IMG/VR virus record: IMGVR_UViG_3300043406_000147
DNA from: a virus
Taxonomy: Duplodnaviria; Heunggongvirae; Uroviricota; Caudoviricetes
Direction: 5' to 3' (one strand)
DNA: 64,000 bases
Shown here: piece by piece, positions 11,921 to 33,524 of the stretch
Position numbering within the stretch: the stretch's first letter is position 1
Layout of the letters: the number at the start of each line of letters is the position of its first letter
The notes under the pieces: generated by a model
What the model saw: the letters and a program-made list of their open reading frames with translations, nothing else
The model's database searches: none
What the model was told of the DNA's origin: nothing
Program-made: the position numbers and the translations under genes

Positions 11921-11934
11921 AACATCGACGATGC

Positions 11935-11980
11935 AGCATAATAGCCGGGCTGAGCCCGGCTATTATGACGTTTCTTTTTT
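11935..11980. terminator. bidirectional rho-independent terminator between converging genes
   Basis: Hairpin GCATAATAGCCGGGC-TGA-GCCCGGCTATTATG followed by a T-run. Confidence 0.6.
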
Positions 11981-16099: not shown

Positions 16100-16138
16100 T
16101 TTCTTTTTTTCACACCTTTGAAATGTTGGAGTAGAGCC

Positions 16139-17368
16139 ATGGGAATTTACGACACCACCACCGAAGCCGCACGTGGCGTGCTGGACGTTGCACGTGACAT
16201 CAACGCAGCGCTGGATGAAGCCGACAAATACACAGGCGGAAAAAGTCTGATTGACGTGTCGAAAAACGCACGTGTCGAGCCGCTGTTCATCGTGGACAGC
16301 GCGCTGCTTGCGTACGAACACATGCCTGATATTGCTCAAACGATGCAATCCATCTTTGCGGGCTACTACCTGCAAGCCGTGGAACACATCACCACAATCG
16401 GTGGGATCAAAGTCACTGACAAGCTGGCTCCTCTGAACCCGAATCGGAAGGTCGACATCGGCCTGATGAGCGAGAACGTGATGGTGCCGTATGCACAGAG
16501 CGCATGCGCCAGCGTGGATGAGTGGCGCCTGAAGGCCGACTCCTACACCTTTACGCTGCCGACCACGAAGAACCGTGTGAAGATCGGCAACGAATCGATG
16601 GTTCCGACCATGAGCACGGAAACGTTGCGCCTTGTGCGGGAACCCATCAAGTCCATCGGCACGGAAGCTGACGATGACAAGAAGGACAAGAACAGCAATT
16701 TCAAAGATGCTGGCAAAGTGATCGGCGAAGTGGCGGCTCTGTCGGTGGGCAAGCTGTACACAATCACGTTGAAAAACGACAAGCAGAGCGTGCCTGTGAC
16801 GGTGGCGATTCGCCTGATGGCCCGCACCATCCCGACCAGCTCACTCACGAGCATCTTCACGTTCAACAACCGTGAGGACATGGATTTCATGGAACGTGTC
16901 CACGGTTGGCGTTCTGGCCGGCTGGAGCTGATCAACGATCTGATCCTGTGCAACGACCTGGTGGATGCCCATCGGAAAAACCTGATCAATGACAAGACGG
17001 GACTCTACCAAGAAATTCTGTCGCGTCAAAACAACGGCCTGGCTGCTGGGCTGCTGGAGCGCAATCCTTCGTTGGCGGTGGCGAGCAACCTCTGTGTCAT
17101 CGACTCATCCACACTGGCGGCGATCGAGATCAAGATGGGTGGGGCGTTCGACAACTACAAGGTTCGTCGCGAGGTGTTCAACACCACCAACATGATGATC
17201 ATGGCTGTGGTGGATCGCGGCTACGATCGGGTGACGTTCTATCACCGCGGTATCGCCACCACCACCGAGATGTCCATCCGTGACATCAAGGTCTCCAACA
17301 AGGGCAATGGTCCGGATGTCACTGACATCCTGAAAGCATTCATGGGTGGGAAAGCCCCTGTTCTCTGA
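16139..17368 (+). CDS. hypothetical protein (possible capsid/virion protein)
   Basis: ATG at 16139 after a GGAG. 410 aa. Divergent from the minus-strand structural genes across a 39-nt promoter region. Confidence 0.5.
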   Translation: MGIYDTTTEAARGVLDVARDINAALDEADKYTGGKSLIDVSKNARVEPLFIVDSALLAYEHMPDIAQTMQSIFAGYYLQAVEHITTIGGIKVTDKLAPLNPNRKVDIGLMSENVMVPYAQSACASVDEWRLKADSYTFTLPTTKNRVKIGNESMVPTMSTETLRLVREPIKSIGTEADDDKKDKNSNFKDAGKVIGEVAALSVGKLYTITLKNDKQSVPVTVAIRLMARTIPTSSLTSIFTFNNREDMDFMERVHGWRSGRLELINDLILCNDLVDAHRKNLINDKTGLYQEILSRQNNGLAAGLLERNPSLAVASNLCVIDSSTLAAIEIKMGGAFDNYKVRREVFNTTNMMIMAVVDRGYDRVTFYHRGIATTTEMSIRDIKVSNKGNGPDVTDILKAFMGGKAPVL

Positions 17369-17408: not shown

Positions 17409-18299
17409 ATGTTCAGCAAATATCTCTCCCTGCTGCTGCCGAGCTTCGAGCGCTCGCAAGTGATCGCCAGCGCCGAAACCAGCCGGCAAGTCATTCTGGA
17501 GCAAACCCTCCCGTCGATTTCGGGGGCGGAGAAACTCTACGCTGGGAAGAAGCCGGCCAGCAAAGAAGGGCAAGCCCTCGACAAAGCCATCGCCGCGGCG
17601 GTGGGAAACAAGCCACTCTTCACCAACTTGGCGCGTGTTCTCAAGAAGTCCACGGACATTCTTGACTTCTGCATCAAGTACGGTGAAAAAGCTTTCGCCA
17701 ACACGGAAACCAATCGGGCTCTGACATACCCGAAAGTAGCAGTGATTCGCACTGTGGAAGCCAGCGAATACGTCAGCACGTATTGCCGGCGCATGCTGAA
17801 CTACTTCCTGGTGTTCGAAACCATCGCATCGGGTGGTACGACGGCTGCGCTGTCGTCCAGCGAAAAGCTCTGGGTGGAACAAAACCTCCCGGACTTCTGC
17901 ACGGCTCTGAAGTCTCTGGACATCGAAGTGGATGTCTTCGAGCGCATGCTCAAGGATCTCCCTGATGCCGTGGTAAGCGAGCTGGCGGACCGCTCCTTCT
18001 CGAACGTGTCGGGTGTGGGCAAAATCGACCCCATGAACATGCGCAACTTCAGCGCAAAGATCAATCCGTTCTACCTGATTCGGATGACCAAAGCGGCGTG
18101 GGACGCTGAGCGCTATGACTCCGTCAAGGAAGAGCGCAAAATGCTGCAGCTGCGAATGATGCAGTTGGAGCGTCAACGCGACGGCAAGCCCGATGCGAAG
18201 CTCGATGCACAAATCGAGTATCTCCAGAACCGCATCACGGCGCTGAATCAGAAGGCCGAGAAAATGGAGAAGGAATGGCTGAACGGGGACTCCAAATGA
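17409..18299 (+). CDS. hypothetical protein with a C-terminal coiled-coil
   Basis: A 296-aa ORF. The C-terminus (RKMLQLRMMQLERQRD...LQNRITALNQKAEKMEKEW) is heptad-like. Confidence 0.5.
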   Translation: MFSKYLSLLLPSFERSQVIASAETSRQVILEQTLPSISGAEKLYAGKKPASKEGQALDKAIAAAVGNKPLFTNLARVLKKSTDILDFCIKYGEKAFANTETNRALTYPKVAVIRTVEASEYVSTYCRRMLNYFLVFETIASGGTTAALSSSEKLWVEQNLPDFCTALKSLDIEVDVFERMLKDLPDAVVSELADRSFSNVSGVGKIDPMNMRNFSAKINPFYLIRMTKAAWDAERYDSVKEERKMLQLRMMQLERQRDGKPDAKLDAQIEYLQNRITALNQKAEKMEKEWLNGDSK

Positions 18300-18865
18300 G
18301 CGATGTGAAAATCTACCCGAGTGGGTTCATCGGGTCGGCAAAAGTACGTCAAACGAAAACAAAGGGCTTTGAAGACATTGCCCGACGAATCATTGACCGA
18401 GCTGTCAGTTCTGATTCTTCGAACTACACCGCCAGCTTGGATGTGATCGAACTCTGGGATGTCGTTCGGCAAAACAAGCCGGAATTCCGGACGTTCGAGT
18501 TCAAAGAAAAGATCATTGTCACGGCGCTGAACACCTTCGGCGCTTCGACATTGGGGCAGTGGATTGATTTGCAACTGTCCTCCGAGGAGCACAGCTCGCA
18601 TCACACAGCCTGGCTCGAAGAAACAATGGGCTACGTCATTCTGGGTGCTCGACGAAAGCTGAACTATGACAGCTGGACCATGCTTTTGTCTGCGGACGGG
18701 AAGCCCGAAAGAACCACAAATCGTGGTTGGAAGCTCGATCAGCTGTTGAAAGACCGCCCCTACCAAAACATGACGATGCGAAATGTCGTGCTGATGTGGG
18801 TGCAACGCGAAGGCGGGATCAACGATCTGATCGAAAGTCTGTTCGTCTTGTACGGTCCTCGTTAA
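18296..18865 (+). CDS. hypothetical protein
   Basis: ATG at 18296 overlaps the upstream stop (ATGA). 189 aa. Confidence 0.45.
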   Translation: MSDVKIYPSGFIGSAKVRQTKTKGFEDIARRIIDRAVSSDSSNYTASLDVIELWDVVRQNKPEFRTFEFKEKIIVTALNTFGASTLGQWIDLQLSSEEHSSHHTAWLEETMGYVILGARRKLNYDSWTMLLSADGKPERTTNRGWKLDQLLKDRPYQNMTMRNVVLMWVQREGGINDLIESLFVLYGPR

Positions 18866-18886
18866 TCAGAAGGCGAAGGGGTGTCT

Positions 18887-20323
18887 ATGTCTGAGAACAA
18901 CGACAACCTGCAGGAATGGTCGGCTGACCAGGAATACAGGCAACACCCCATCTGCGTCTTTGAAGATGACGAGCTGCATCTTGCAGAGCAGATGGATCAA
19001 AAAACCATTGCCATGGCAAGCGACATCGCAACCAAATGTGATGCCGTGGTTTCCATGGAAGCGGTTGTGAATTACATCGACGTACAAGGTAAGTCGGTGA
19101 CACTGGGCAACACCACCATCGCCATGGCCAACATGGCCATTGGTGGGTTCGCTGATCAAGCAGGTATTTCTACCGATGCTCGTCTGCTTTCGATGGAGAG
19201 TGACGGGTATAGCCAAAGCGTAGACCAGATGAAAAGCGCGATCGACAGCGCTTACTCCGGCATCAAGAAGAAGTTGACATTCTTAGCCAAACATGTGGCT
19301 GAGGTGCTGGCTTTCTTTGGTCGGAATCTGATGAAACTGAAAATCAAGCTGAAGCTGCTGGAGCAGTCTCTGGCTGAGATGAAACAAGAACACCCGAAGC
19401 TCAACGCCATCAAAGCAGAGAACTGGTGCGAATACCTGTGCTACTCAAACAAAGGCTTCGTGGCGGGCTTGGGTGGCATTGGTGAGGCTATTGAAGAGCT
19501 GATTTCGTCACATCGAAAGATGTCGACGGATGCTGTTCACAAGTACACCGGGTGGCTGAAAGACAATCGTGGGTTTTTCAGGGATGCGCCTGACACACAG
19601 GCAGTCGTGGGGCAGTTTGCTGAACTGACTTCGAACTCAAACGAGTTTCTACTGCCCAACATGTCATTGTTCAACCGAACAATTGGGCTGGATGAGCCGG
19701 CTGATGGCTTCGCCTTCTATCGCTCGAAAGAGCTGCCGGGTGGGCGAGCCTTCTATTCGGAAGTCTGTCCTGGAGAAAGCAAGTCCACCGATGTCATCAG
19801 CGCACTGAGTGGCCTTAACTTTCGAGTGGATTACTTCGATCCGACATCCTACAAGACAATGAAGATGAAGGTCGTGGCTGCGGTAGCCATTCCGATGTCT
19901 GTATGGTTGGCGTATGTCAACCCTGCACTCGGACTGGTGGCTGGTGCAGGCACTGCGCTTTATCTGAGCCAACAAAAGATCAACGGGTCTGGCAACGACC
20001 AAGTGCGAATGACAAAAGACATGGTCTACCCGTGTCTGACAAAAGCACAACTGGAGAAAGTCATCCAAGTTGTCAAAGAGAACATCAAGGCCCTTGAAAA
20101 ATGGGATCACGATGTCCTGCAGGATGCTTGGAAAGCAAACGACATTGACGAAGTGATCGCATCGGTCACAGACGGAGAAGTCGAACATCCTGTTCTCAAG
20201 AGTTACTGCAATGCGCTGTTGGCTTTGATTGCCAAGATTGGTTCTGGTGTTCAGAATTACGCATTTCGCGTACTGAACGCAATGATCAACTTTGCACAAA
20301 AAAGTCAAATCCAGTACGTCTAG
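18887..20323 (+). CDS. divergent sixth member of the tandem paralogue family (internal virion protein-like)
   Basis: Shares GI.T..R...MESD......Q.....I.....IKK.L.F.AK...E...FF with the downstream paralogues. RBS GAAGGGG. Confidence 0.5.
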   Translation: MSENNDNLQEWSADQEYRQHPICVFEDDELHLAEQMDQKTIAMASDIATKCDAVVSMEAVVNYIDVQGKSVTLGNTTIAMANMAIGGFADQAGISTDARLLSMESDGYSQSVDQMKSAIDSAYSGIKKKLTFLAKHVAEVLAFFGRNLMKLKIKLKLLEQSLAEMKQEHPKLNAIKAENWCEYLCYSNKGFVAGLGGIGEAIEELISSHRKMSTDAVHKYTGWLKDNRGFFRDAPDTQAVVGQFAELTSNSNEFLLPNMSLFNRTIGLDEPADGFAFYRSKELPGGRAFYSEVCPGESKSTDVISALSGLNFRVDYFDPTSYKTMKMKVVAAVAIPMSVWLAYVNPALGLVAGAGTALYLSQQKINGSGNDQVRMTKDMVYPCLTKAQLEKVIQVVKENIKALEKWDHDVLQDAWKANDIDEVIASVTDGEVEHPVLKSYCNALLALIAKIGSGVQNYAFRVLNAMINFAQKSQIQYV

Positions 20324-20416
20324 GTCGGAATCTTTTGACCACCATGGCCTCAGGCACTTCAGGTGCTTGGGGCCGTTTTATGCTGTTTATCCACAGAACA
20401 CAGGAGTACCGCTAAA

Positions 20417-22342
20417 ATGCGATTCACAATAGGTACGGCTCGACGCGTTGGGATGGAAGACGACGATGTCGATACAGACAAAAAAATAGAACCGGCACCC
20501 AAAGAGCCGGAGAAGCCCAAAGAAGAGCCTGAGAAAAAAGAAACGCCTCCGGAGGAGCCGAAACCAGAGGAAGATCCTCCTGCTGAAGACCCGCCACCAG
20601 AAGCGAATGAAGATCCTCCTGCCGACACAGCGGAATCACCTGCTGACGATGGTGTGTCAGGCGACGCGCAAACCACACCTGAAACTCCGCCTGCTGAACC
20701 TGTCGTGCAAATCAAAGGGCAGCTGAATGTGGATAAAGCAGTTGAGGACATCGAAAACAAAGCGGCCGCTGATGAAGTGGCCAAGTCTGAACAGAACGCC
20801 TTAGGAAAAATCGTGAGCAACATTGATCAAAGTGCAAACATTGCCAACGAAGACGCTCTCCATCAGCGGATGGTGGACGCTCTTCCGTATGAGAATCCGA
20901 CCAGTGTGGCTGCAGATGCTGCGCGCATCACCCTTGAATTCGAAGGAATTCAAGATGAGCTTGACAACGCAAGTGAAACAATCGAAACAGTGTCAGATGT
21001 GGCGAGTACTCTCTCGCAAGCCAGTCCAAGTGAAATGAATAATGCGTCGGGGCAAGCGCTTTGTGCTGCCCTCGAACACTTCCGCACCAGCTTAGGCGTT
21101 CGGAAAACAAACTTTGGGATGGAAGGCTATCTCACGGGTCGCTACACCTTGAAAGCCAAACACTCGATGGCAATGGAAGGCATCAAGGAGTTCATGAAAG
21201 ACCTCTGGGAGTTCATTATCGAAACCACCAAGAAAATCGGTGAATGGATCAAGGGGTTCTTCAAGTGGGTGTGGGGTGTGCTGACCAAGCAACGCCGAGA
21301 TGCGCAGCGGGCACAAGAGGCTTGTGTTGCGGCAAAAAAGAAGGAGCAAGACGCCCCTTCTGAAGCGGTGGTCTTGGCAGATCAAACAGAAACCGAACTG
21401 GCTGTTTTGGAGAAAGGCAGCAAGGCTGAGTTTGACAAAGCCATCGAAAAGATCAAAGCAAGCAACAATGTCACAGCGCTGATCCTGAAGGAAATGAAGC
21501 AGCAACCTTCCCAGCTGTACATGAAAGAATTCAGCTTCCTGCATAAGGACGGCGTGCCTCTGACCGCACAAGAAATCCAAGACCTTTCTGTCAAGGGCTT
21601 CAGTTTGATTGAAAACGAGATGGTGCACCATCTCGGTGAGATGAACATTTTGCAAAAAGCAGTGGATGACTTTTTACAGGTGGCCGATCGCACTTCTGAT
21701 GAGTTGTATCGGGCAAGCCTCGCATTGCCTGGGGTTGTTCGTCCAACAGCTGTCGGTCAATATGAGACCTATGAGCTGTATGACGATGGCACTGCGCAAT
21801 GCTTGATTCGCCATTTGCCTGGCAATCACGCTGTATATCGACTGTGCTTGCAGGACACAACTCAAGAAGCATTTAAAGACAATATTCGCACGCTGAAGAA
21901 ATATGTGTTGCCGCTTGAAAAGAGCGCCGACCCTGACGCAGCTTTGGAATATACTTCGGTTGACAGGGCGTATGTTTTCTTGGATTACTTCAAGAAAGCG
22001 GACGCGAAGATCGAACAGGGTATCGGCGAACTCCGAGACAAGATCGAGGCAGCCCTGGATTATCTTCACGACAAAGCTACCGAGATGAAGAAAAACTTCG
22101 GTAAAGAAGAGCAGCTCCCAGTTGAGGATGGGCGCGAATATCCGCTGTCAGTGCGGCGTGTGCTCGACTTTTATCGAAATCAAATGAGTTCATTCACGAT
22201 CACATTTTCAAACTACTACATCAAACTCAAGGAACAACTGATCAGCTACATGACGCAATGTGCGCAGCGGCGGTATCAGCTTATTCATGCGAGTGAGGAA
22301 GTGTTGAAAGAAATTGCGAAGATGAACCCTTCGCTTGTGTGA
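20417..22342 (+). CDS. paralogue family member 1 (Pro/Glu/Lys-rich N-terminal low-complexity region)
   Basis: ATG at 20417 after an AGGAG. Conserved core AMEGIKEFMKDLWEFIIETTKKIGEWIKGFFKWVWG. Confidence 0.6.
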   Translation: MRFTIGTARRVGMEDDDVDTDKKIEPAPKEPEKPKEEPEKKETPPEEPKPEEDPPAEDPPPEANEDPPADTAESPADDGVSGDAQTTPETPPAEPVVQIKGQLNVDKAVEDIENKAAADEVAKSEQNALGKIVSNIDQSANIANEDALHQRMVDALPYENPTSVAADAARITLEFEGIQDELDNASETIETVSDVASTLSQASPSEMNNASGQALCAALEHFRTSLGVRKTNFGMEGYLTGRYTLKAKHSMAMEGIKEFMKDLWEFIIETTKKIGEWIKGFFKWVWGVLTKQRRDAQRAQEACVAAKKKEQDAPSEAVVLADQTETELAVLEKGSKAEFDKAIEKIKASNNVTALILKEMKQQPSQLYMKEFSFLHKDGVPLTAQEIQDLSVKGFSLIENEMVHHLGEMNILQKAVDDFLQVADRTSDELYRASLALPGVVRPTAVGQYETYELYDDGTAQCLIRHLPGNHAVYRLCLQDTTQEAFKDNIRTLKKYVLPLEKSADPDAALEYTSVDRAYVFLDYFKKADAKIEQGIGELRDKIEAALDYLHDKATEMKKNFGKEEQLPVEDGREYPLSVRRVLDFYRNQMSSFTITFSNYYIKLKEQLISYMTQCAQRRYQLIHASEEVLKEIAKMNPSLV

Positions 22343-22371
22343 TTTTTTTTCCTGTAAAGAGAGTTTTCATC

Positions 22372-23778
22372 ATGAAACGAAATCTGACCCTGGCCACCAT
22401 CAATCTCAACGTCGGTCTTCTGAGTGAGCAAGAAGACAGCGCCGCCATGGCGGCTGCCCTTGCGGCGTATGAGCAAACCGAACCGACTGCGGCAACTGGT
22501 CTGGTTGAAGCCGGCACCGAGCTGGAAAACGTGACCCAAGCCGTCGAAGATGGGGGCGAAGCGGCACAAGTCGTCGATGCTGCACTGGCTCCCCTGGAAG
22601 AATCCCAAGAAGAAATCAACACCCCGGCGTTGGAGGCATTGCGGATCTGCCTGAAGCACATGTCCGGCCAACTCGGTATTCCGACGAGTCGTCGGATGGG
22701 CATGGAGTCGGACGCCACCCTGACCAATCGGCAAATTGCCATGGAAGGGATCAAGGAGTTCGCTTCCAAGATCTGGGAGGCGATCAAAGCAGCTTTCGCA
22801 AAGATCAGCGAATGGATCAAGGGGTTCTTCACATGGCTCTTCCGAATGGGTGACCGGACAGAGAAGGCGCTGGCTGTTGAAGAAAAGCGTGCGGAATCGC
22901 TGAGCAAGGTTGACATTTCCGAAAAGGCTGCGGAGATGGCAAAACAGCACAAAGAAGAACTACATGCCCTTTCTGGGCAGTCCAGTGCTGGCTCGCACCC
23001 GTACCTGTATGTCCCGAATGGCGGTGAGTCGGTTGAAGGGGGTAACTTCGTCAAAGCGGTGGAGAACACGTTCTCTTATGTGAGCAAGAGCATCGAAGCC
23101 AAGTTCCTGTCGAAGACGAGCTGCAACAACCTTGCAGCTCTACTGCTCCAAGACATGAAGCACTTCGCTGATGAAAAGATCGAGGCGCTGAAGTTCACCC
23201 AAGAAGTGGCTGAAAAGTATTACTTCATGGCCGAAGAAAAAGTCGACGGTCAGAAATATCGCTCTGCACAACCTCTGCTGGGTGATTACCAAGTGCTGGA
23301 GCAGCGCCCCGACAGCCCGACAGCCCGGTACCATATCGGGTTCGAGCGCGCAGGCGGCGCAACCGATCAAATCATCAAAACTCTCACCCCCGCTGAATCG
23401 AAACAGCTGGCAAAAATGGCAGGCAAATTCATCGACAGGAGTTCGCTTTCTGACGTTGAGAAGTTTGTGACTTCGAAAATCGAGGAGCTTTCGAAAGAGC
23501 TGAATACGGCAAGCCTTGCTGCCACTAAGAGCAGCCTCAAGGCGGCTGCTGGAGGCGGTAGTTTTGGAGACAGTCCGACGCGTGACGTGTTCAACAACAT
23601 CAAGCGTGGCTTCGATCTCTTCCAGGTCATTTTCTGCGGATTCCTGCCCAAGGTGCTTTCGTACAAAGTCACACTGTGCGAAAATATCAAACACCATGTG
23701 AAAGTGTCGAACGACTTTGCTGAATCTGTGAGCAAATTCAATCAGCAAATGGAGAATGGCGAGGCGTTCGTGCTGTAA
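22372..23778 (+). CDS. paralogue family member 2
   Basis: The conserved ALEALRICLKHMSGQLGIP motif precedes the AMEGIKEFASKIWEAIKAAFAKISEWIKGFFTWLF core. Confidence 0.6.
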   Translation: MKRNLTLATINLNVGLLSEQEDSAAMAAALAAYEQTEPTAATGLVEAGTELENVTQAVEDGGEAAQVVDAALAPLEESQEEINTPALEALRICLKHMSGQLGIPTSRRMGMESDATLTNRQIAMEGIKEFASKIWEAIKAAFAKISEWIKGFFTWLFRMGDRTEKALAVEEKRAESLSKVDISEKAAEMAKQHKEELHALSGQSSAGSHPYLYVPNGGESVEGGNFVKAVENTFSYVSKSIEAKFLSKTSCNNLAALLLQDMKHFADEKIEALKFTQEVAEKYYFMAEEKVDGQKYRSAQPLLGDYQVLEQRPDSPTARYHIGFERAGGATDQIIKTLTPAESKQLAKMAGKFIDRSSLSDVEKFVTSKIEELSKELNTASLAATKSSLKAAAGGGSFGDSPTRDVFNNIKRGFDLFQVIFCGFLPKVLSYKVTLCENIKHHVKVSNDFAESVSKFNQQMENGEAFVL

Positions 23779-23887
23779 AGCCGAGGGCTTGTCGATCACA
23801 TACTGTGACAATTGTCGTCACCCCACTATTGATCATGGTGGGGTTTCACCCGAATTTTCATTTCACTTTCCACGTGGAGCTACAAAC

Positions 23888-25255
23888 ATGGCACGAGTTA
23901 CCCTGGGCCGCATCGGTCTCGAAAACGAAGAAGTCACTCCGGAAGTCACGGACGAAACGCTGAACGCGATGGCCGAAGCTCCGGATCAGGAAATCGCCGA
24001 CGCGACCCAGATCGCCGCCGAGCTGGACGCCATCGACGGCGCCATCGAAGAAGGCGTGGACACCGCCGACACACTGGGCGAAGTCGCCGCTCCGCTGCAA
24101 GAAGCCGTCGACTCCGGTGAAGGCATCCCGGCTCCCGCCGCGGAATCGCTGCGCATCCTGGTCAGCCACATGACCTCGCGCATCGGCGTGCCCGTGCGGA
24201 CCAAGACGTTCGCGATGGAATCCTTCAAGGGCAAGCAGACGCGCCTGCAAGCCACCCAGATCGCTCTGGAAGGCATCAAGGAAACCGCACAACGCATCTG
24301 GGCCCAGATCGTCGAAGCCTTCAACAAGGCCATCGACTGGATCAAGTCGTTCTTCGCCAAGCTGTTCGACGGCGCCGTCAAGCTGAAGGCCGCTGGCGAG
24401 AAGCTGAGCAAGGCCGCTGGCGAGAAGGCCAGTGCCACGATGGAAAAGGACACCATCGAGTCGGCCGGTTTCGCTGAAAAGCTGCAAGTCGGTGGCGCTG
24501 CTCCGGCTGGTGACGCGTTCGCTGCGCAGTTCAAGAGCTTCGTCGACAGCTACAAGACCTACATCGGCGCGACCGAGGCCGCTTCGAACCGCACCTTCAT
24601 GGACAACGTGAAGCAGCTGTTCGCCAACGCGACCGACGGCGCGAAGGCCAAGGAAAAGCTGAAGGTTCTGGCGCACAAGATCACCTTCGGCAAGAAGGGT
24701 CAGTCGGCACAGACCCCGCCCGAAGGCATGGAAGTCCAAGTTCTGGACCTGACGAAGATCGGCGACAAGCAGATCAGTGGCTTCGCCTTCACGGCGGCAG
24801 CGACGGACGAGCAAGTGCTGGCCAACATCGGTCGTGTCAAGGTCTGGGTGGAAGACGTGGCTGGTCGCAAGGCCGTGGATGGCAAGAACGTCAAGGCCCT
24901 GACGGCGTCGGCTGCCAAGGAAGTCGCCGACAGCGTGGTCACCCTGGCCGCAGCACTGATCGACGGCAAGAAGGCTGCTGCTGCTCTGGAAACCGAGCAG
25001 AAGAACCTGCAGAAGCTGGCTTCTGACATGTCCAAGAAGGCACCTTCGATGGCTGGTCCCGCACCGGAAGGCGGTCAAACGTCGTCTGAAGCCGCACCGA
25101 GTGTGCTGGCCGCTGCTGTGCGTTCGTCGATCAACCTGACCACGACGGCTCTGTCGCAGACCCGCAGCTACGGCCTGACCACCGGCAACGCCGCGCTGGC
25201 CTACGTCTCGGCGTCGCTCAGCCTGCACAAGGCCGCTGCCGCTGCTGCCAAGTAA
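23888..25255 (+). CDS. paralogue family member 3 (GC-rich, Ala-rich)
   Basis: N-terminus MARVTLGRIGLENEE. Core ALEGIKETAQRIWAQIVEAFNKAIDWIKSFFAKLFD. Markedly higher GC than its neighbours. Confidence 0.6.
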   Translation: MARVTLGRIGLENEEVTPEVTDETLNAMAEAPDQEIADATQIAAELDAIDGAIEEGVDTADTLGEVAAPLQEAVDSGEGIPAPAAESLRILVSHMTSRIGVPVRTKTFAMESFKGKQTRLQATQIALEGIKETAQRIWAQIVEAFNKAIDWIKSFFAKLFDGAVKLKAAGEKLSKAAGEKASATMEKDTIESAGFAEKLQVGGAAPAGDAFAAQFKSFVDSYKTYIGATEAASNRTFMDNVKQLFANATDGAKAKEKLKVLAHKITFGKKGQSAQTPPEGMEVQVLDLTKIGDKQISGFAFTAAATDEQVLANIGRVKVWVEDVAGRKAVDGKNVKALTASAAKEVADSVVTLAAALIDGKKAAAALETEQKNLQKLASDMSKKAPSMAGPAPEGGQTSSEAAPSVLAAAVRSSINLTTTALSQTRSYGLTTGNAALAYVSASLSLHKAAAAAAK

Positions 25256-25351
25256 GCAGCTCAACTAGGCGAACAACGTCTTTCGCCTAACCGCGTAATG
25301 GAGGGGTTCGCCCCTCCATTATGTCTGCCTCATCTTCACTGGGAAGAAAAT

Positions 25352-26698
25352 ATGAAAATCAATCTGGGCCGCATCGGTCTCGAAAACGAAGGAGTCGCTC
25401 CGCTGGCTGATGACTCCACAGTCCAAGCGTTTGACGAGTTCAATCAGCAAGACGCGCAGTGCATGAACGAAATCGCTGTCGAGCTGGACCTCCTCGACGG
25501 CGCCATCGAAGAAGGCGAAGAAACCGCAGCAGTGGTGGAAGAAGCAGCTGCCCCGTTGCAAGAAGCCGTCGACTCCGGCGAAGGCATCCCGGCTCCCGCC
25601 GCGGAAGCTATTCGGATCTGCCTGAAGTACCTCAGTGGGCGTACGCAGGTGCCGATGCACATGACCGCTGTTGGGGTGGAGTCCTTCAAGGTCAAGCAAA
25701 CCCGCCTGAACGCTACCAAGATTGCCATGGAAGGCATGAAGGAGTGGGCGAAGAAAATCTGGGACGCCATCGTGGCGGCTTTTGATTCCGCTATCGAGTG
25801 GGTCAAGGGCTTCTTCTCGAAGCTGTTCGATGCAGCTGTTCGCATGAAGAAGGAAGCCGAGGCCCTCAAGCAAAAGAGCGAATCGCTGGCTGGGAAAACT
25901 CCCAAGGCCGGGGCGAAGCTTGAGAAAAGCTCGCTGACGACCAAGCTGATGTTCGGCGGGAAGATCCCCGATGGCAAGACGTTCGCCAGCTTCTACGAGA
26001 AGACGATCGCCACTTACATCGACGTGGCCAAGAAGAGCGTCGGTGAGGACACCGTCCTGAAGATGCTCGAAGGCACCGCGACCATTCTCGCTTCGGCGGA
26101 TGAGTCGGTTGCGAAGCTGGAGCCGCTCGTCAAGGAGGTCACGACGATTCCGTTCGCTGGCAACGAGACGCGCATCCCCGGTGAAACACCGGCCGACGGT
26201 ATGACTCTGAAAGCCAGTGCAACACTGGTGGGCGATGTCAATATCTTCCTGGAGACGTTCAAGGAAGACGCCTCCCTGGATCAGCGCACGGACAACTTCG
26301 GTCGCATGAAGATCTGGGTGGGCCCGGCCATCACACAAAAAGAACTGACGGCGTCCGACATCACGCCGATGAAGCCTGACGACTGCAAGAAGGTTTGCGT
26401 CGCCACGGCGGAGCTGGCTGACAGCATGCTGGAGATCAAAGCCAACGTGACCAAACTGGAAGCTGTACAGAAGAAGATCGCTGGTGAAGCCAAGCGTCTG
26501 AGCAACGCAAAAGACGACGCTGGTGGTGATGACGGCAGCAAGAAGTACCATGCTGCTGCGTCCCGACTGGCACGGGCAATGCTCAGCATGAGCACCAACG
26601 GTCTGAGCGGCATCCGCACGTACGGCGTGAACACGGGCAATGCGTCCCTTTCGTTCGTGAAGCAGTCTCTGGCTGCGCTGGAAAAAGAAGGCGCGTAA
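25352..26698 (+). CDS. paralogue family member 4
   Basis: N-terminus MKINLGRIGLENEG. Core AMEGMKEWAKKIWDAIVAAFDSAIEWVKGFFSKLFD. Shares near-identical DNA tracts with member 3. Confidence 0.6.
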   Translation: MKINLGRIGLENEGVAPLADDSTVQAFDEFNQQDAQCMNEIAVELDLLDGAIEEGEETAAVVEEAAAPLQEAVDSGEGIPAPAAEAIRICLKYLSGRTQVPMHMTAVGVESFKVKQTRLNATKIAMEGMKEWAKKIWDAIVAAFDSAIEWVKGFFSKLFDAAVRMKKEAEALKQKSESLAGKTPKAGAKLEKSSLTTKLMFGGKIPDGKTFASFYEKTIATYIDVAKKSVGEDTVLKMLEGTATILASADESVAKLEPLVKEVTTIPFAGNETRIPGETPADGMTLKASATLVGDVNIFLETFKEDASLDQRTDNFGRMKIWVGPAITQKELTASDITPMKPDDCKKVCVATAELADSMLEIKANVTKLEAVQKKIAGEAKRLSNAKDDAGGDDGSKKYHAAASRLARAMLSMSTNGLSGIRTYGVNTGNASLSFVKQSLAALEKEGA

Positions 26699-26796
26699 AG
26701 CGCTGAGCATGTGAGTGCAGAGAGGGGAGTCATCCCCTCTCTTATGCCGTTTAAATCGTTTGATCAGATAAATACCGCTTCTTTCGGAGAATACAC

Positions 26797-28350
26797 ATGC
26801 CCACGGTAATGCTGCCTACACCCAATACCCATTGGACAATTGACCGGCCTGTCGTGGTCGGTGTCCTGAAAGATTTGATTCAAATCACAAGAATCAGTCA
26901 CACCACTCCGATCAGCTTCTACAGTGAAGAAGCTAAAAGCTATCAACAAGGCTCTACGTTAGCCAGTGAAGGCATTGAAGAAAACCTTTGGCCTCACGAT
27001 GATCGGCTGTTTGTGGAGGTCAAGGAAGAGATTGACCTGGACCGAATCTATTCGAACAGAGTGGCTCAGAACGAGCACCCTCACATTTTCTCTGACAGTG
27101 CGCTCGGCATCTCCATCAAGCCTGTTTACTTCTATACCAAGCTGTCTATTTCAGTCAAGTACCGCGCATCAGATCGAAACAAAGCAGAAATGTGGCGTAA
27201 CGAAATGGCTGTTCGGGCGGCAATGCTTCGGGACATCAACTTGCACGAGTTGGAGTTTGGGTTTGAAATACCTGCGGCGTTTTTGTTCATCATTGAGGAG
27301 CTGCATCGGCTTCGCGAGAATGTGGCTGGGTATGGTCAGGATCTGAACGATTATTTTACGTCGAACTTGTCAACCAATACTTCACTGACCACGAATTTGA
27401 ACGCGAGCACTTTTGCATGGTGTACCAAGGAAAGGCAAATTGGTGTGCAGGGGTGGTTTGAGTTTGATAAGGTTCCCGACAAGGCAGAGCGGGAAAACGA
27501 TCATGATGCTTACACAAGCAGTTTCAGCTATGTGCTGCACTACCAAAAGCCGATTGCGTCTAACATGACGTATCCGTTAATGGTGCATCAACAAGTCTTG
27601 GACGCTAAATTCAGGCCAGAAGAAAAAGCTTACAGCCTCTATGACCAACCTGCCTACTATAGTCAGAGTGGGAGAGCGGCAGCGTACTTCAGCAGTGACG
27701 CCCGTGTTAGGAGAATTGGCAGTAAGGAGGGCGTGAGCATTCCAGCTTACGATGAATTCAAACCGAGAACAGTGCCGAGTTCATCTGTCAAGATTTTTAA
27801 CGTGATGGTCTGCGTGACCCCTGAAGATAAACGCACGCTGATTAACTTGGGTGAGTTAGGGGATTTCGTTCTTGACTCTGATATCCTTGAGTTCATCAAA
27901 ACGTCCGAACACTCATTCATGACGGGAGATTACCAGTCCATCTTACAGCTGAATCTGTATTCGAACTCAGAGCAACTGGACAAAGGGTGCATCACTTTAT
28001 CGAACGATCTGACACTCAGCGCGACGCGTGATTTGGATCTTCGGAAAGTGTACCATGTGCGCATGAGCGTCATCACCAATATCAGCTACTTGCCTGTGCA
28101 AGCACTCAAGCGAATCCAGCAGAACCCCGTGGTGGGGATGAAACTGGTGAACGCAATCAATGCTTCAATCACCGGGTTCAATGGATCAAGGGCAGACATT
28201 CGAAAACAAGTTCTGTCAGTAGAAGACGTTTTGTTGTTAACCAGTAAGCGACTGAGCCCGAGTTACATGCGTGGACATTACCCGCACTTCATCGCGGAAA
28301 TGTTTGCTGGGACGACAAAGCAAAAAGAAGTGTTGATTAAAAACACTTGA
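26797..28350 (+). CDS. hypothetical protein (517 aa)
   Basis: GGAGA RBS. Unrelated to the flanking paralogue family. Confidence 0.5.
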   Translation: MPTVMLPTPNTHWTIDRPVVVGVLKDLIQITRISHTTPISFYSEEAKSYQQGSTLASEGIEENLWPHDDRLFVEVKEEIDLDRIYSNRVAQNEHPHIFSDSALGISIKPVYFYTKLSISVKYRASDRNKAEMWRNEMAVRAAMLRDINLHELEFGFEIPAAFLFIIEELHRLRENVAGYGQDLNDYFTSNLSTNTSLTTNLNASTFAWCTKERQIGVQGWFEFDKVPDKAERENDHDAYTSSFSYVLHYQKPIASNMTYPLMVHQQVLDAKFRPEEKAYSLYDQPAYYSQSGRAAAYFSSDARVRRIGSKEGVSIPAYDEFKPRTVPSSSVKIFNVMVCVTPEDKRTLINLGELGDFVLDSDILEFIKTSEHSFMTGDYQSILQLNLYSNSEQLDKGCITLSNDLTLSATRDLDLRKVYHVRMSVITNISYLPVQALKRIQQNPVVGMKLVNAINASITGFNGSRADIRKQVLSVEDVLLLTSKRLSPSYMRGHYPHFIAEMFAGTTKQKEVLIKNT

Positions 28351-28367
28351 TCAACACCAACGAAACA

Positions 28368-29933
28368 ATGTCACTTGCGAGACTGACCATGAGCTTATCT
28401 GACAAACAAATCAAAGCAATTGCCCTGAACGCTGAAATGTGCGCGCAGGATGCGCAATTTCAAGGGCTTGGGCTTGTACTTGAATCCGCACAAGAAGTGC
28501 TTGAACAAGCCGACTCGGATGAGCGGGCTATTCAAGACGCAAAAAGCGCGATCGAGGCATCCGATCAGGAATTCTCTTCGCCTGCGTTAGAAGCACTGCG
28601 GATTTGTATCAAGCATTTTGAGAAGATCAACGGACTCTCGCCTTCGAAGCGGCCTGGCGTGGAGTCTTCTAATGCAAAATCAAATCGGGCGATTGCGCTG
28701 GAGAGCGTGAAAACATTCTTGATCACACTGTGGGAAAATGTCAAGCGAGCAATCTCCTACGTCTGGGGTAAAATTCGCGAATTCTTCAAGCTACTGCTTG
28801 GTAAGAAAGAAAAGAATCTTGGTGACGAAACGCTTCGCTTAACTGGGATTCGCAAAGACTATGATCGCTTCTTGGCCACTGAGAAGGAGTTCTTAGAAAA
28901 AACAATCGGAGTAGAGCTGATTCAATCTGAGCTGCATAAATCCGGGGATAATACCCCGGAAGTGCAAAGAAGTATAGCAGCAATGATTGGGCGGGTCGAT
29001 CCAGGTCATGCCGCTGAGAGATTGAAAGAAGTCCAAGCACTCTTCAAGGAAATCAGCGAAGTCAAGCAAACGATCGAAGCCAGGGAATTTCGACTCTTAA
29101 GCGCCGATGCGGGTTGTTTAGATGAGCAGATAGAAGCTGCAAACGACACATTTCACGGTATTTTTGACGTGATTGATTTCTTGTACGACCAGCACATTCG
29201 TCAACGTGTTATTCGTGCAACGTTTCAGCGAGACGCAATGGAGCGGACAACAGATCACGGGCCTGCAAAGAAAACGGATGCGGAGTTAATTGAATACTAC
29301 GCTGACGATTTCAAATATGGGCAAACACTTACAAACCACATCGAAGATCTGAATCGTGAAAAACTATGTGGAACAACTTTGGTCATGACGGCGGTGGGTG
29401 CTTCTATTGAGCGAGATGGCATCAAGTCAATTCACGACTTAGGCACTGCTCAAAAATACAGCATTCAGATCGAAGAGAAAAAGAAACCGATCAGCGCTGA
29501 TCAAAAATACGCCTCCGGAAAAGCGGACTTCTACCAAGTCGCGCATAAGGCAGGCGATGTGGCTAAGGAATACACCAATGCTATTGCTGACATCACAGAA
29601 AAAGCAATGTCGCAGGATGCCGGGCTAAGCCAAGACATCATCGCAGATGGTCTGGATGATACATCTCGTCTGATTTCAAAATTTGATGGCGAGAACCCCA
29701 AAGATCCTTTTCATGCGACGTTCTCCGCGCGAGCACGTGTCATCATTGACATGAACAGAGCTGCTCCAAATTTGATGTTTGCTGCCACGAACCTGTTGCA
29801 AAAGGGGACAATTTACCATGGTGAACTGCTGTGGTTGATTGAGAAAAACTACTTCATCTACAAAACCATGGTCTATGCGATGCGGGTTTTGAAAGAAGTT
29901 GACTTGATGACGAAGGGTGCTTTGTCGAAGTAA
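28368..29933 (+). CDS. paralogue family member 5
   Basis: SSPALEALRICIKHFEKINGLSPSKRPGVES...ALESVKTFLITLWENVKRAISYVWGKIREFF. The start is uncertain (ATG 28368 or 28389, or TTG 28347). Confidence 0.5.
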   Translation: MSLARLTMSLSDKQIKAIALNAEMCAQDAQFQGLGLVLESAQEVLEQADSDERAIQDAKSAIEASDQEFSSPALEALRICIKHFEKINGLSPSKRPGVESSNAKSNRAIALESVKTFLITLWENVKRAISYVWGKIREFFKLLLGKKEKNLGDETLRLTGIRKDYDRFLATEKEFLEKTIGVELIQSELHKSGDNTPEVQRSIAAMIGRVDPGHAAERLKEVQALFKEISEVKQTIEAREFRLLSADAGCLDEQIEAANDTFHGIFDVIDFLYDQHIRQRVIRATFQRDAMERTTDHGPAKKTDAELIEYYADDFKYGQTLTNHIEDLNREKLCGTTLVMTAVGASIERDGIKSIHDLGTAQKYSIQIEEKKKPISADQKYASGKADFYQVAHKAGDVAKEYTNAIADITEKAMSQDAGLSQDIIADGLDDTSRLISKFDGENPKDPFHATFSARARVIIDMNRAAPNLMFAATNLLQKGTIYHGELLWLIEKNYFIYKTMVYAMRVLKEVDLMTKGALSK

Positions 29934-30018
29934 GGAACATACATCGGGGCGCAAGCCCCGATGTATGCCGTAAGCATGGTTTGAGTATTGTTTAACGCAC
30001 CCATTCAGGAGAACACAC

Positions 30019-31533
30019 ATGCCCATCGCTGGATCAAACAAAGACGTTGCATCGATCATCAAAGCTGCTCCACTGGCCGCTGCGCCGTCGAAAGTACAAG
30101 TCGTTACACCGACTGAAGTTGCATTCAAGCCGACCAGTGTTGACCTACGCTGGCAAGCAAAAGAAAACCTTTTGATGCATATCGAAGGGTCGAGCTGGTC
30201 TGTCAAGAGCTATTTTAGCCAAGTGCTGACCACTGATTCTGATCTGTCGGGGCAACAGCTCAGTGCATCTGGTGTTCATCAGCAGTACATCGAGATCAGG
30301 GATTTGGAACTCAAGGTCACGTCTGCTTTGAACACATCTCAAGATAGCGTGACAAAAGCAATGACAGTGGAAGGCACCTCGATGGTGTACCCGTACATCA
30401 TTCCCAATGAAGGGGATATGTTCATTGCAGACATTGGGGAAGGGCGGCTGGCATTGTTCCGACTGCGCAGCACCACGAAGAAAAGCATCTTCAAACAAGC
30501 TTGTTATGAAATCACGTATGCGCTAGATACAACGGACTCCACCAAGATGGAGTCCTTGAAATCAAAAGTAGTGCAGACATACTACCATCAGAAAAACTTT
30601 CTGACGTACGGGAAGAACCCTCTGCTCGTCAGGAGTGAAGTGGATGCACTGATCAATCTCGAAAAGCAGTACATGTTGATCGTGGATTACTACATGAAAC
30701 GGTTCTTCAGCGCCGAGTACAAGACTCTGATGGTGCCGATGCAGAAGTATCCGACGTACGACCCATTTCTGGTGGAGTTCATTCTGAAAACATTCAGTGT
30801 TTTGGACCATGTCCGCATCCAGGAGATTCGCCAACTCAACACCATGGACGACAGTGGTCTGAAGTCCGATAGCTTCTGGAAAGCAATCCAATACCGAAAC
30901 GAGCTGTACATGAACACCTGCTTCCAAGAATTTGGATTGGTGGACACACGGTGGTTCTCGACTGACCCAGTGTATAACTCTTTGCGCTGGAGCGGATTCG
31001 CCTATGTGATCTATCCAAAGAATCCGATTCTTGGTGTTGATGACATGCAGTGTAATTCAATCAAAGAAATATCAACACTTCAGAGCTTTTTGCCGAAGCT
31101 GCGCCCTGTGCCGACAACCCCAGCGGTTGGGGACTTGGACATGCTGGAAACGTACTCGCCTAGCGATGACGACGAGATGAATTACGCCTATACACAGGAC
31201 CCGAGCCCAATACCAGAGCCTGCTGAAAAAAGCTTGGACCCCAAGTATGCGGCTGTTCGGGCTTTCAATTTGAGAAAAGAGCCGATTCATCACCAAGCCA
31301 GTATTCGGGCAATCAGTGCAGAGCAATACGTGCTGAGCGATCATTTCTACAAACGAGATTCGGAAATGTGTGTGTTTGAAGGGATGGTGTGGGAACACAT
31401 CGAAAACAAACGCGCTGATCCAAACCAACTGCTGGACTTAACCAAATTGTGCTGGGCATGGGGGGTGGTGGAACAATTCTACTACATGCCTATTCTGTTG
31501 GCAATGATTGGCTCTGCCATTCGTGGTGCTTGA
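30019..31533 (+). CDS. hypothetical protein (504 aa)
   Basis: AGGAG RBS. Preceded by a hairpin and a TATGCCG motif. Confidence 0.55.
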   Translation: MPIAGSNKDVASIIKAAPLAAAPSKVQVVTPTEVAFKPTSVDLRWQAKENLLMHIEGSSWSVKSYFSQVLTTDSDLSGQQLSASGVHQQYIEIRDLELKVTSALNTSQDSVTKAMTVEGTSMVYPYIIPNEGDMFIADIGEGRLALFRLRSTTKKSIFKQACYEITYALDTTDSTKMESLKSKVVQTYYHQKNFLTYGKNPLLVRSEVDALINLEKQYMLIVDYYMKRFFSAEYKTLMVPMQKYPTYDPFLVEFILKTFSVLDHVRIQEIRQLNTMDDSGLKSDSFWKAIQYRNELYMNTCFQEFGLVDTRWFSTDPVYNSLRWSGFAYVIYPKNPILGVDDMQCNSIKEISTLQSFLPKLRPVPTTPAVGDLDMLETYSPSDDDEMNYAYTQDPSPIPEPAEKSLDPKYAAVRAFNLRKEPIHHQASIRAISAEQYVLSDHFYKRDSEMCVFEGMVWEHIENKRADPNQLLDLTKLCWAWGVVEQFYYMPILLAMIGSAIRGA

Positions 31534-31545
31534 AAGGGGTGAGTC

Positions 31546-32169
31546 ATGGAACAACCTGTTCGCAAATATGAGCTTCCCGCCGCGCTGGCTAAGACTGAGA
31601 AGATTCTGTTCAAGCGGCTCTACCAAGTCACAATGCGGTACGTGGATTCACGGTCGATCGATGAGCTTCGCGTGTTCGGTATCCCTAGCCTAGGCGACGC
31701 CAAGGTCGATACCTACATCGAGAATGACGATTTCCACACGTATAAGAAAATCCCTGAGCTGATGGAATTGTACCAGTCTGGGATTAACTTCACGTTTGTA
31801 AATCCAAAAAACACAAAGGAAATTTACGAAATCATCGTCGAATACATCCAAGGATGGAAAGACTACATGAGTGGGAGCATGAACGCTGCGCACCCAGATG
31901 TGGAGTTCTTAACCAATCTGGACCGGTTTGCAGGTAAAGTGTTCCCTCATGCAGCTGCGTTCATTCCGAAACACGTCGTTGTGGATGATTTCTTTTCGAA
32001 GTTCGATGTGAACCTGACTGCACAAACTTTGATTGATATCACAACGCAAAAGAAAGATGCGGGTGAGATGACTGAAGAGGCTGAGGAGCAGAAGAGAATT
32101 GCAAATCTGCGCAAGCATGCTTCCAGCGAAGACTATTTTGTTTCTAATACCCGTGTACTGAAGTGGTGA
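31546..32169 (+). CDS. hypothetical protein
   Basis: A 207-aa ORF with a GGGGTGAG RBS. Confidence 0.5.
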   Translation: MEQPVRKYELPAALAKTEKILFKRLYQVTMRYVDSRSIDELRVFGIPSLGDAKVDTYIENDDFHTYKKIPELMELYQSGINFTFVNPKNTKEIYEIIVEYIQGWKDYMSGSMNAAHPDVEFLTNLDRFAGKVFPHAAAFIPKHVVVDDFFSKFDVNLTAQTLIDITTQKKDAGEMTEEAEEQKRIANLRKHASSEDYFVSNTRVLKW

Positions 32170-32174
32170 GCTAA

Positions 32175-33524
32175 ATGGAAATCGAAGACACCCCACTGTA
32201 CTACGAGTTGATGGAGACCTTCATCAAATGCGACAAGCAAAGTCAGTCGTACTACAAGGTCATGATTCATCTGGATGATCAAGGCGCACTCTACGAACCA
32301 ATGGTGGTAAAGAGTATCACAAACCGACGCGACTATGTTGGTGCGTTTTGTGATGAGGTCGTCTGCACTGTGGTGATGCCGCTTGGGAAGTATGCTCTCA
32401 AAGTGTACCCCAATCGGAATCACCTTGAAATCACCATCGAGAAGTATTTCCTGAAAGAAAACTCGACGACGATCGATTACGACAAGCCTTTGTTGTCAAG
32501 ACGCTACACTGCTTTTTTGATTGAGGATTTGCCGGCAATCAAAGAGGTGCAAGGACAAGAAGCGAAAGACGAGCACGCCCTCGACCATGTCAGTTTGGAA
32601 GAAGTTCGATTCCAGCTGTTCAACAAAGTGGAGGAGCGCATACGGGTTGCAGCTGTTGGCGGCATTTACCGAAAGATGCGTGTTGATCAACTCCTTCTTG
32701 GATTAATCACTGAAGTCACGAAGAAAATCAAGGCTGACACACGAATCATGCTCAAAGGAGTTGACATGGTTCCTGTTAACAATGTAAAGCCACTCGAACA
32801 GATTGTCTTGACCCACGGGTTACATCTGAGTGATTTGAGTGGTTTCTTACAGAAAAAATACGGGGTATATTCCGCTGGGCTTGGGAGCTACGTCCAGAAT
32901 CAGAACTGGTTCATCTATCCGTTATTTGATACGGCTCGGTACAAGAAAGCCATACGAACTGCAAACATCTACATCTTACCCAAGAAGAAATTCCCAGAGG
33001 TGGAGAGAACTTACCGCGTAGTAGGTCCCGTCGTTTCGATCATGTCCACTTCGAATACCGAATTCAAAGGGGATAACGATCTAAGCTACGCTCAGGACGG
33101 TAACGGGGTTCGGTTTGCAGAAGCTTCTAACTTCATGGAAAAGTTCCAGAAGACAGCTGGGAATAAAACTGGGATCAAACGAAAAGACAACAATAACGAA
33201 TTCTCAGCACAAACGGTGGGGAGCAACGTAGATTACGCGCCTGTTCCTCAAGAGAGAATCACCAGTAATCCATTCCAGCACTACAGCGACCTAGCAAAAC
33301 GAAAAGGTGGCGTGGTCTCTCTGAATTGGGAGAACTCAAGTCCAGACTTGATTGAGCCCGGAATGCCAGTTAGATTCATCTATTTTGACGATGATAAAAT
33401 CAAGGAAGCATATGGCATCATGGTGGGAGCGTCCCACAGCGTCGCAAAGGTAGGCGACATGATGATGCAAAAACACACGACAAACTCAATGCTGTTGGTT
33501 TTCACAAATCTGAAGCAGAAATGA
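32175..33524 (+). CDS. hypothetical protein (449 aa)
   Basis: Compact spacing after the previous gene; RBS GGTGAG. Confidence 0.5.
   Translation: MEIEDTPLYYELMETFIKCDKQSQSYYKVMIHLDDQGALYEPMVVKSITNRRDYVGAFCDEVVCTVVMPLGKYALKVYPNRNHLEITIEKYFLKENSTTIDYDKPLLSRRYTAFLIEDLPAIKEVQGQEAKDEHALDHVSLEEVRFQLFNKVEERIRVAAVGGIYRKMRVDQLLLGLITEVTKKIKADTRIMLKGVDMVPVNNVKPLEQIVLTHGLHLSDLSGFLQKKYGVYSAGLGSYVQNQNWFIYPLFDTARYKKAIRTANIYILPKKKFPEVERTYRVVGPVVSIMSTSNTEFKGDNDLSYAQDGNGVRFAEASNFMEKFQKTAGNKTGIKRKDNNNEFSAQTVGSNVDYAPVPQERITSNPFQHYSDLAKRKGGVVSLNWENSSPDLIEPGMPVRFIYFDDDKIKEAYGIMVGASHSVAKVGDMMMQKHTTNSMLLVFTNLKQK

Follow-up and report, generated by a model that had tools for sequence, protein, structure and literature searches.

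A divergent six-gene array of PF12699-type internal head proteins in a phiKZ-like jumbo phage

What do the six long genes arranged in tandem at positions 18,887 to 29,933 of the Caudoviricetes record IMGVR_UViG_3300043406_000147 encode? We analyzed a stretch of 64,000 nucleotides from this IMG/VR record, referred to here as the window. A sequence-only reading of the window had proposed that the six genes are paralogues with acidic, protease-processed N-termini and a conserved amphipathic core, and that they are candidate inner-body or ejected virion proteins of a giant phage. Our analysis supports this assignment through sequence, fold, synteny and the literature on homologues. On sequence criteria, the six genes are members of the Pfam family PF12699 (phiKZ_IP) and represent a divergent example of a catalogued family. 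We consider it highly probable that they encode internal head or ejection proteins of a divergent phiKZ-like jumbo phage. All seven open reading frames (ORFs) of the locus, which comprise the six paralogues (g1 to g6) and one embedded gene (gX), are intact on the plus strand with the boundaries first proposed for them:

g1, 18887-20323, plus strand: 478 amino acids, the most divergent PF12699-type paralogue, directly after a homologue of phiKZ gp91
g2, 20417-22342, plus strand: 641 amino acids, paralogue with a low-complexity spacer at 20507-20560
g3, 22372-23778, plus strand: 468 amino acids, paralogue
g4, 23888-25255, plus strand: 455 amino acids, canonical full-length member matching PF12699 positions 2-387
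g5, 25352-26698, plus strand: 448 amino acids, canonical full-length member
gX, 26797-28350, plus strand: 517 amino acids, homologous to the neck's tail terminator (phiKZ gp98, RSL2 gp166)
g6, 28368-29933, plus strand: 521 amino acids, paralogue between the terminator (gp98) and stopper (gp99) homologues

PF12699 describes "phiKZ-like phage internal head proteins" and has a gathering cut-off of 27 bits. Five of the six proteins score above this cut-off (g2 53.9, g3 44.4, g4 121.4, g5 136.7 and g6 43.5 bits), and g1 falls below it (19 bits, E 9e-4). The match in g6 is limited to the N-terminal module. The same five proteins match PHROGs "internal head protein" families, and an NCBIfam scan gave no meaningful match. 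In the source metagenome record (JGI 3300048671; also Logan SRR35184734), g4, g5 and g6 already carry a PF12699 label. The earlier description of these sequences as unrecognised therefore does not hold.

The phage itself is represented by these metagenome contigs only. A megablast search of positions 18000-31000 against 50,697 phage records returned no match, indicating that the phage has no close sequenced relative. The best protein relatives found with tblastn are about 25-34% identical and come from jumbo phages of Ralstonia, Burkholderia, Serratia and Xanthomonas. Word-index homologue searches with g1, g6 and g5 recovered 2-4 proteins each, so the lineage is sparsely sampled. By sequence, the only relatives with solved structures are phiKZ gp93 and gp162 in capsid entry 8y6v.

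We examined the mutual kinship of the six proteins using pairwise and profile comparisons. An all-against-all BLASTP search connected g2-g6 with one another over roughly the first 180 residues (E 1e-5 to 1e-25). For g4 and g5, the similarity extends along the whole protein (39% identity, E 2e-82), and g1 matched none of the other five. A 10-sequence hidden Markov model also missed g1 (E 3.1), and a deeper profile was required. We built one from distant relatives retrieved with g2 among 1.84 billion representative proteins. The 122-sequence profile includes g3, g5 and one close g4 relative, and a 119-sequence version was made by removing those three. Among the 430 six-frame ORFs of at least 60 amino acids in the window, the 122-sequence profile matches exactly six, g1-g6, and the next-best ORF reaches 3 bits. 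The 119-sequence profile, which is free of self-matches and close relatives, still gives near full-length matches to all six (g4 339, g5 304, g2 157, g3 145, g1 70 and g6 53 bits), spanning residues 157-618 in g2 and 38-472 in g6. These results bear out the claim of six paralogues. The C-terminal halves are aligned by the 119-member profile; single-sequence hhalign comparisons of these halves with each other found nothing, and apparent 100% matches of the g3 and g6 C-terminal halves were discarded as self-matches.

The family proteins are rich in Ala, Glu and Lys, and g3 weakly matches PHROG tail length tape measure families (E 1e-4 to 5e-4). Such matches would be expected if the resemblance among the six were a compositional artefact of Ala/Glu/Lys-rich coiled coils like those of tape-measure-like proteins. 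Fifty shuffles of each protein and the reversed sequences scored at most 4.5 bits on the 122-sequence profile, against 53-339 bits for the real sequences on the 119-sequence version. Conservation is positional and falls on specific Glu, Trp and Ile columns, and the full-length predicted-fold matches and conserved synteny described below also argue against an artefact. The chance that composition explains the resemblance is negligible, and the shuffle controls exclude it. We rejected the tape-measure matches of g3 as coiled-coil noise.

Two sequence blocks had been proposed as the shared signature of the array. In a MAFFT alignment, both are clear in g2-g6 and only faint in g1, which holds remnants of them (SME-104/S and ..AFFGRNL; here and below, a slash separates P1 from P1'). 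The literal form of the first block, ALEALRIC(L/I)KH, is exact in g3 and g6 and in those two only. Gene conversion was considered for the identical ALEALRIC stretch in this pair and was rejected. Nucleotide identity within the two blocks is only 47-64%, and the blocks are conserved only as protein, which indicates old paralogues under selection and not recent gene conversion. The individual strings quoted earlier were all found: LAPLEESQEE is at residue 72 of g3, APLQEAVDSGEG at residue 68 of g4 and residue 67 of g5, and the low-complexity spacer PEKPKEEPEKKETPPEEP occupies residues 31-48 of g2.

The most divergent paralogue, g1, was placed through its orthologues. Only three g1 homologues were found in a collection of 5.8 billion proteins. 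Two of them (P0002 and P0003), which are 35-37% identical to g1, reach 39.4 and 27.9 bits on PF12699. A g1 profile aligned to the 10-sequence family alignment gave an hhalign probability of 96% (E 4.7e-9) and placed SME-104/S of g1 onto the conserved ..ME/S block. In two loci (L006 and L007), the g1 orthologues lie at the equivalent genomic position, directly after a gp91 homologue and before another PF12699 gene. A PF25618 (PhiKZ_gp91) gene precedes the g1 orthologue in a related contig. From the orthologues, the profile-profile match and the predicted fold, we conclude that g1 is a strongly diverged member of the family. A specific relationship to its positional counterpart, phiKZ gp92, was rejected (hhalign probability 0.3%).

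The N-terminal parts of the proteins had been proposed to carry processing sites of a prohead protease. We counted conservation in 124 diverse family members, using g5 numbering. Across the family, conservation peaks at two Glu residues (sites B and C below), each within an [A/S]-[M/L]-E motif, followed by I140 and W137. Three sites stand out:

Site N, g5 residue 11: Glu in 108/124, [SAG]-x-E in 100/124
Site B, g5 residue 110: Glu in 122/124, [SAG]-x-E in 114/124, P2 Met/Leu, P1' Ser/Gly
Site C, g5 residue 127: Glu in 119/124, [SAG]-x-E in 115/124, P2 Met/Leu, P1' Ser/Gly

We aligned the window proteins with SPN3US gp53 and gp54, phiKZ gp92 and gp93, and RSL2 gp169 and gp170. SPN3US gp53 E125 and gp54 E137 align with site C, and gp54 E124 aligns with site B. 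These SPN3US cuts were mapped by mass spectrometry, which gave the maturation peptides (E)GWKETLKDLFER in gp53 and (E)SLWDDIK in gp54. An additional cut in gp54 lies at AQE-124, and a cut at ARE-12 is probable (PMC10052503). phiKZ gp93 is cut at SLE-13, a site given second-hand in the papers that report it (PMC5694885; PMC11297242). The conserved columns thus coincide with experimentally determined cuts in homologues, and on this alignment the window sites are predicted to be of the prohead-protease type. It follows from the alignment that the first of the two shared blocks ends in site B and the second begins with site C. The sites in the individual paralogues are:

g1: site B SME-104/S (codon 19196-19198); SVD-113 at site C
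g2: site N GME-14; site B GME-236; site C AME-254/GIKE (codon 21176-21178)
g3: site B GME-112/S; site C AME-125/GIKE (codon 22744-22746)
g4: GLE-12; AAE-86; AME-111/S; ALE-128/GIKE (codon 24269-24271)
g5: GLE-11; AAE-85; GVE-110/S; AME-127/GMKE (codon 25730-25732)
g6: ALE-75; GVE-99/S; ALE-112/SVKT (codon 28701-28703)

The predicted cuts separate regions of different character. The part upstream of site C is 112-128 residues long in g1 and g3-g6 and 254 residues long in g2. Its net charge is -13 to -31 (-5 in g6), and that of the predicted mature parts is -7 to +9. The first 40 residues after site C, which we call the core helix, have a hydrophobic moment of 0.54-0.64 in g2-g6 and 0.50 in g1. 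The values for g2-g6 lie above the 99.6th percentile of other window proteins. The core helix carries a net charge of +3 to +6 and contains 6-8 aromatic residues in g2-g6 and 4 in g1.

The greater length of the g2 N-terminus comes with an acidic, Pro/Glu/Lys-rich extension of about 155 residues ahead of the canonical family start (20417-20880). A tract of 96 residues rich in Pro, Glu, Asp and Lys holds 21 P, 18 E, 13 D and 10 K. The Joint Genome Institute (JGI) gene call for g2 begins 12 codons downstream of the ATG used here. The upstream ATG has AGGAG 10 nucleotides before 20417 and restores the family N-terminal R-x-G-M-E motif. Among the 1.84 billion representatives, g2 has one full-length relative, and its other 131 matches cover the N-terminal module only.

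g4 and g5 differ from the other paralogues in composition. Their G+C content at third codon positions (GC3) is 0.79 and 0.73, compared with 0.49-0.63 in the other paralogues and 0.74-0.75 in the gp89/gp90 homologues. Their Ala content (19% and 14%) is also above that of the other paralogues. This high-GC3, Ala-rich composition has as by-products two long antisense ORFs, at 23858-25264 and 25319-26710. g4 and g5 may be high-copy species, and the high GC3 is just a hint of this.

We predicted structures for g1 and g5 with AlphaFold2. The g5 model, made from the 124-sequence alignment, has a predicted local distance difference test score (pLDDT) of 91.6 and a predicted template modelling score (pTM) of 0.89. 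Helices 27-74 and 81-98 lie in its N-terminal part and are followed by a loop and a 64-residue helix at 115-178. Beyond these come a middle region of mixed alpha/beta structure and long helices at the C-terminus. A Foldseek search of BFVD with this model gave 114 matches at E<=1e-3, the best of which are full-length with a template modelling (TM) score of 0.6-0.75. These top matches, internal head or virion structural proteins, come from RSF1, PhiEaH1, RP12, 201phi2-1, PhiPA3 and other phages. In the g1 model (pLDDT 85.3), the elements follow one another as in g5, and its 100 BFVD matches are to the targets found with g5. Both models show the family fold predicted for phiKZ gp92-97 and Goslar gp53-58, which is extended and alpha-helical and includes a small beta insertion. 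Homology among the members is thus seen in the profile searches, and a shared fold in the g1 and g5 models.

The genomic position of the array agrees with its sequence and fold. BLASTP showed that the array is flanked by homologues of phiKZ gp90/gp91 on one side and gp98/gp99/gp101 on the other, with the order kept. The region also follows the SPN3US gp44-54 gene order. Given this conserved order, the slot of the array is that of phiKZ gp92-gp97, SPN3US gp53/54 and Goslar gp53-58. The array had been placed next to a structural block; it lies inside one, the conserved head/neck block corresponding to phiKZ gp89-gp101.

This order also changes how gX is read. It had been described as an unrelated gene embedded in the array, and it indeed has no match to the family profile. 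gX is a homologue of the gp98 tail terminator (BLASTP E 8e-29 to phiKZ gp98 and 4e-59 to RSL2 gp166; phrog_3289 E 2e-104). gp98 and gp99 are adjacent in phiKZ and RSL2, and g6 is interposed between their homologues here. Besides itself, g6 has one database relative, a fragment that is 81% identical. g6 is a paralogue beyond the usual end of the array, and this is the unusual point of the locus.

Work on homologues suggests how such proteins would be handled in the virion. In phiKZ, residues 14-84 of gp93 are lodged between hexamers at the inner face of the capsid, and cleavage releases the helical domain (PMC11297242). More generally, the N-termini are wedged in the capsid; the protease releases the C-termini, which are injected (PMC11297242, PMC12676376). 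Homologues are packaged at high copy and injected. phiKZ gp92, gp93, gp95 and gp97 and Goslar gp58 accompany the DNA into the cell, where they localise to the early infection vesicle (10.1101/2024.03.24.586471; 10.64898/2026.04.21.720040). Injection is not universal, as phiKZ gp162 remains in the head.

By analogy with these homologues, the window proteins would be packaged, cleaved, present in many copies and injected through the following steps. Precursors would be made late in infection, and the acidic N-terminal part would dock each precursor inside the assembling capsid. A prohead protease of the phiKZ gp175 / SPN3US gp245 type (MEROPS S80) would then cut after Glu at [A/S/G]-[M/L/V]-E sites: near residue 11-14, at site B ([GA]-[MV]-E/S) and at site C (A-[ML]-E/G). 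Cleavage would release a near-neutral, mostly helical mature protein whose new N-terminus is an aromatic, cationic amphipathic helix (GIKEF..IW..I...F...WIKGFF). The mature proteins would stay in the head with the DNA as "inner body" material and would enter the host with the genome.

One alternative is that these are mainly minor capsid proteins. Acting like cement or scaffold, they would line and stabilise the inner capsid surface without being ejected, and the paralogues would take different quasi-equivalent positions. In phiKZ, only a short N-terminal segment is ordered on the capsid, and injection has been shown for the helical domains of phiKZ gp92, gp93, gp95 and gp97 and of Goslar gp58. 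Several phiKZ paralogues also tolerate transposon insertions (PMC12676376), and such dispensability is unexpected for an essential cement. We regard a cement role for the whole protein as unlikely. It is partly compatible with the assignment to internal head and ejection proteins, as a role of the propeptide.

A second alternative concerns the function of the mature proteins. They could be membrane-remodelling factors, like ESCRT-III, PspA and Vipp1, that help build the early phage infection (EPI) vesicle. Proteolysis would unmask the aromatic helix, which would bind host inner-membrane lipid after injection. None of the six proteins has a Pfam match to the Snf7 or PspA families at E<=1, and the NCBIfam scan gave nothing relevant. 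An ESCRT-III lead that came from a database name was not specifically supported. A membrane-remodelling role therefore seems improbable to us. We give similarly low odds to the related idea that the two sites and the helix form a proteolytic switch, in which loss of the acidic propeptide inside the head exposes a helix that would engage host membrane lipid after injection and help to build the EPI vesicle, and the variable C-terminal halves of the six paralogues would diversify this function.

Several observations weigh against the assignment to processed and ejected head proteins, or against parts of it. The N-terminal regions had been described as full of protease-type motifs. The motifs are enriched there (38 of 80, versus 23.5 expected from length), but the totals are modest: g2-g6 contain 80 [SAG]-x-E motifs against about 58 expected in composition-preserving shuffles, with per-gene P values of 0.04-0.24. 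Overall motif counts are thus weakly above shuffles, and positional conservation is the real evidence. Asp replaces Glu at site C of g1, and g3 and g6 lack site N. In the AlphaFold2 precursor model, site C lies within a long helix and is not obviously an accessible substrate. The g1 model comes from an alignment made up mainly of canonical members, and this can bias it towards the family fold. We found no prohead protease gene among the larger window ORFs that were scanned; this is uninformative because the phiKZ protease gene lies far from the array. Recent cryogenic electron microscopy of phiKZ and Goslar did not resolve an "inner body" (10.64898/2026.04.21.720040; PMC13250141). For this reason, "inner-body component" is a weaker description than "packaged, processed, injected head protein". 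Finally, the evidence on this phage's own proteins comes from its genes, and their virion behaviour is taken from homologues.

We compared the array with four known systems. In phiKZ, gp92-gp97 (with gp153, gp162 and gp163) belong to the same Pfam family and have the same predicted helical fold. They form a tandem array of about six paralogues in the equivalent slot, after gp89-gp91 and beside gp98/gp99/gp101. Their N-termini are likewise acidic and carry S/A/G-x-E sites, including a cut near residue 13. Identity between the two arrays is very low; BLASTP finds only g2 against gp93 and gp95 (E 0.007). The window array also differs in having g6 beyond the terminator gene and in the long Pro/Glu/Lys-rich N-terminal extension of g2. 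Goslar gp53-gp58 are six tandem proteins with the PF12699 fold in a syntenic region, all of them virion-associated, and gp58 has been shown to be injected. In Goslar, one species dominates at about 2000 copies per virion.

SPN3US gp53 and gp54 (paralog family A) are major ejection proteins. Their mapped cuts align with sites C and B, and ARE-12 aligns with site N. Their propeptides are about 125-137 residues long, and the mature N-terminus begins G/S-x-K/W, as in the gp53 maturation peptide (E)GWKETLK found by mass spectrometry (PMC10052503). The upstream order of DNA polymerase, a 990-amino-acid structural gene and gp50-52 homologues is the same. SPN3US has two paralogues where the window phage has six, and its protease motif is strictly A-x-E, whereas several window sites have Gly at P3. 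The internal proteins IPI-III and Alt of T4 offer a more distant parallel. Prohead protease cuts their N-terminal targeting peptide after Glu, and the mature protein is packaged and injected. There is no kinship in sequence or fold, and T4 targeting peptides are 10-20 residues long compared with more than 100 in the window array.

The genes that define the position of the array, together with other annotated genes of the window, are as follows:

43-651: RNA polymerase beta-subunit fragment
3119-3958: endolysin
4024-5766, minus strand: DNA polymerase
11986-14967, minus strand: 993-amino-acid structural gene
17409-18299, plus strand: phiKZ gp90 homologue (BLASTP E 3e-21)
18275-18865, plus strand: phiKZ gp91 homologue (BLASTP E 1e-8)
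30019-31533, plus strand: gp99 homologue, neck stopper (BLASTP E 6e-58; PF24214 and PF24215)
between the gp99 and gp101 homologues, plus strand: 207-amino-acid gene, within the downstream flank 30019-33524
32175-33524, plus strand: gp101 homologue, baseplate hub (BLASTP E 6e-50)

The upstream flank (17409-18865) matches phrog_8047, "virion structural protein", and corresponds to the head proteins found ahead of the array in phiKZ, RSL2 and SPN3US. The roles given to the downstream genes are those of their phiKZ counterparts: tail terminator for gp98, neck stopper for gp99 and baseplate hub for gp101 (PMC13250141).

Farther upstream, two divergent ORFs, a gp49-like one at 14993-16387 (minus strand) and a gp50/gp89-like one at 16118-17368 (plus strand), overlap by about 270 nucleotides. 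Homology to RSL2 gp173 begins at residue 32 of the plus-strand ORF, and the predicted true start of this gene is therefore probably downstream of 16118. A run of small ORFs occupies 7300-11950, between a gp45-like gene (5967-7259) and the 993-amino-acid structural gene. In SPN3US, the equivalent position is a hypervariable locale containing gp47, an essential ejection protein (PMC5694885). Most ORFs in the 40-57 kb stretch have no PHROG match. An HNH endonuclease-like ORF at 40217-40771 (phrog_8048, E 1e-16) may be a homing endonuclease.

The late promoters of phiKZ have a TATG core. In the window, we observed a recurrent intergenic element made of a GC-rich hairpin followed a few bases later by TATGC(C/T)G. 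The window holds 25 copies of the heptamer where 9.3 would be expected, a count that none of 100 shuffles reached. Examples of the element are:

1527-1557, 3972-4018, 7783-7811, 8951-8982, 20344-20385, 26719-26749, 29940-29970 and 37028-37068
39578-39605, 45644-45669 and 49778-49806, minus strand

Often a copy stands immediately upstream of a gene, as it does for g2, gX and the gp99 homologue. The combination of hairpin and heptamer looks like a terminator plus promoter pair. If this is true, individual paralogues could be transcribed separately.

In these giant virions, proteins of this family rank among the most abundant, and they enter the host along with the genome. Such an array is usual in a phiKZ-like genome, and its genes should be annotated as PF12699 internal head / ejection proteins. 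What the window contributes is a very divergent six-member array; it does not introduce a new kind of system. Seen alongside 119 further distant members, this array shows that selection keeps three protease-type sites and the helix after them, and little of the remaining sequence. These conserved sites and the helix are a useful guide for mutagenesis in the tractable phages phiKZ, SPN3US and Goslar.

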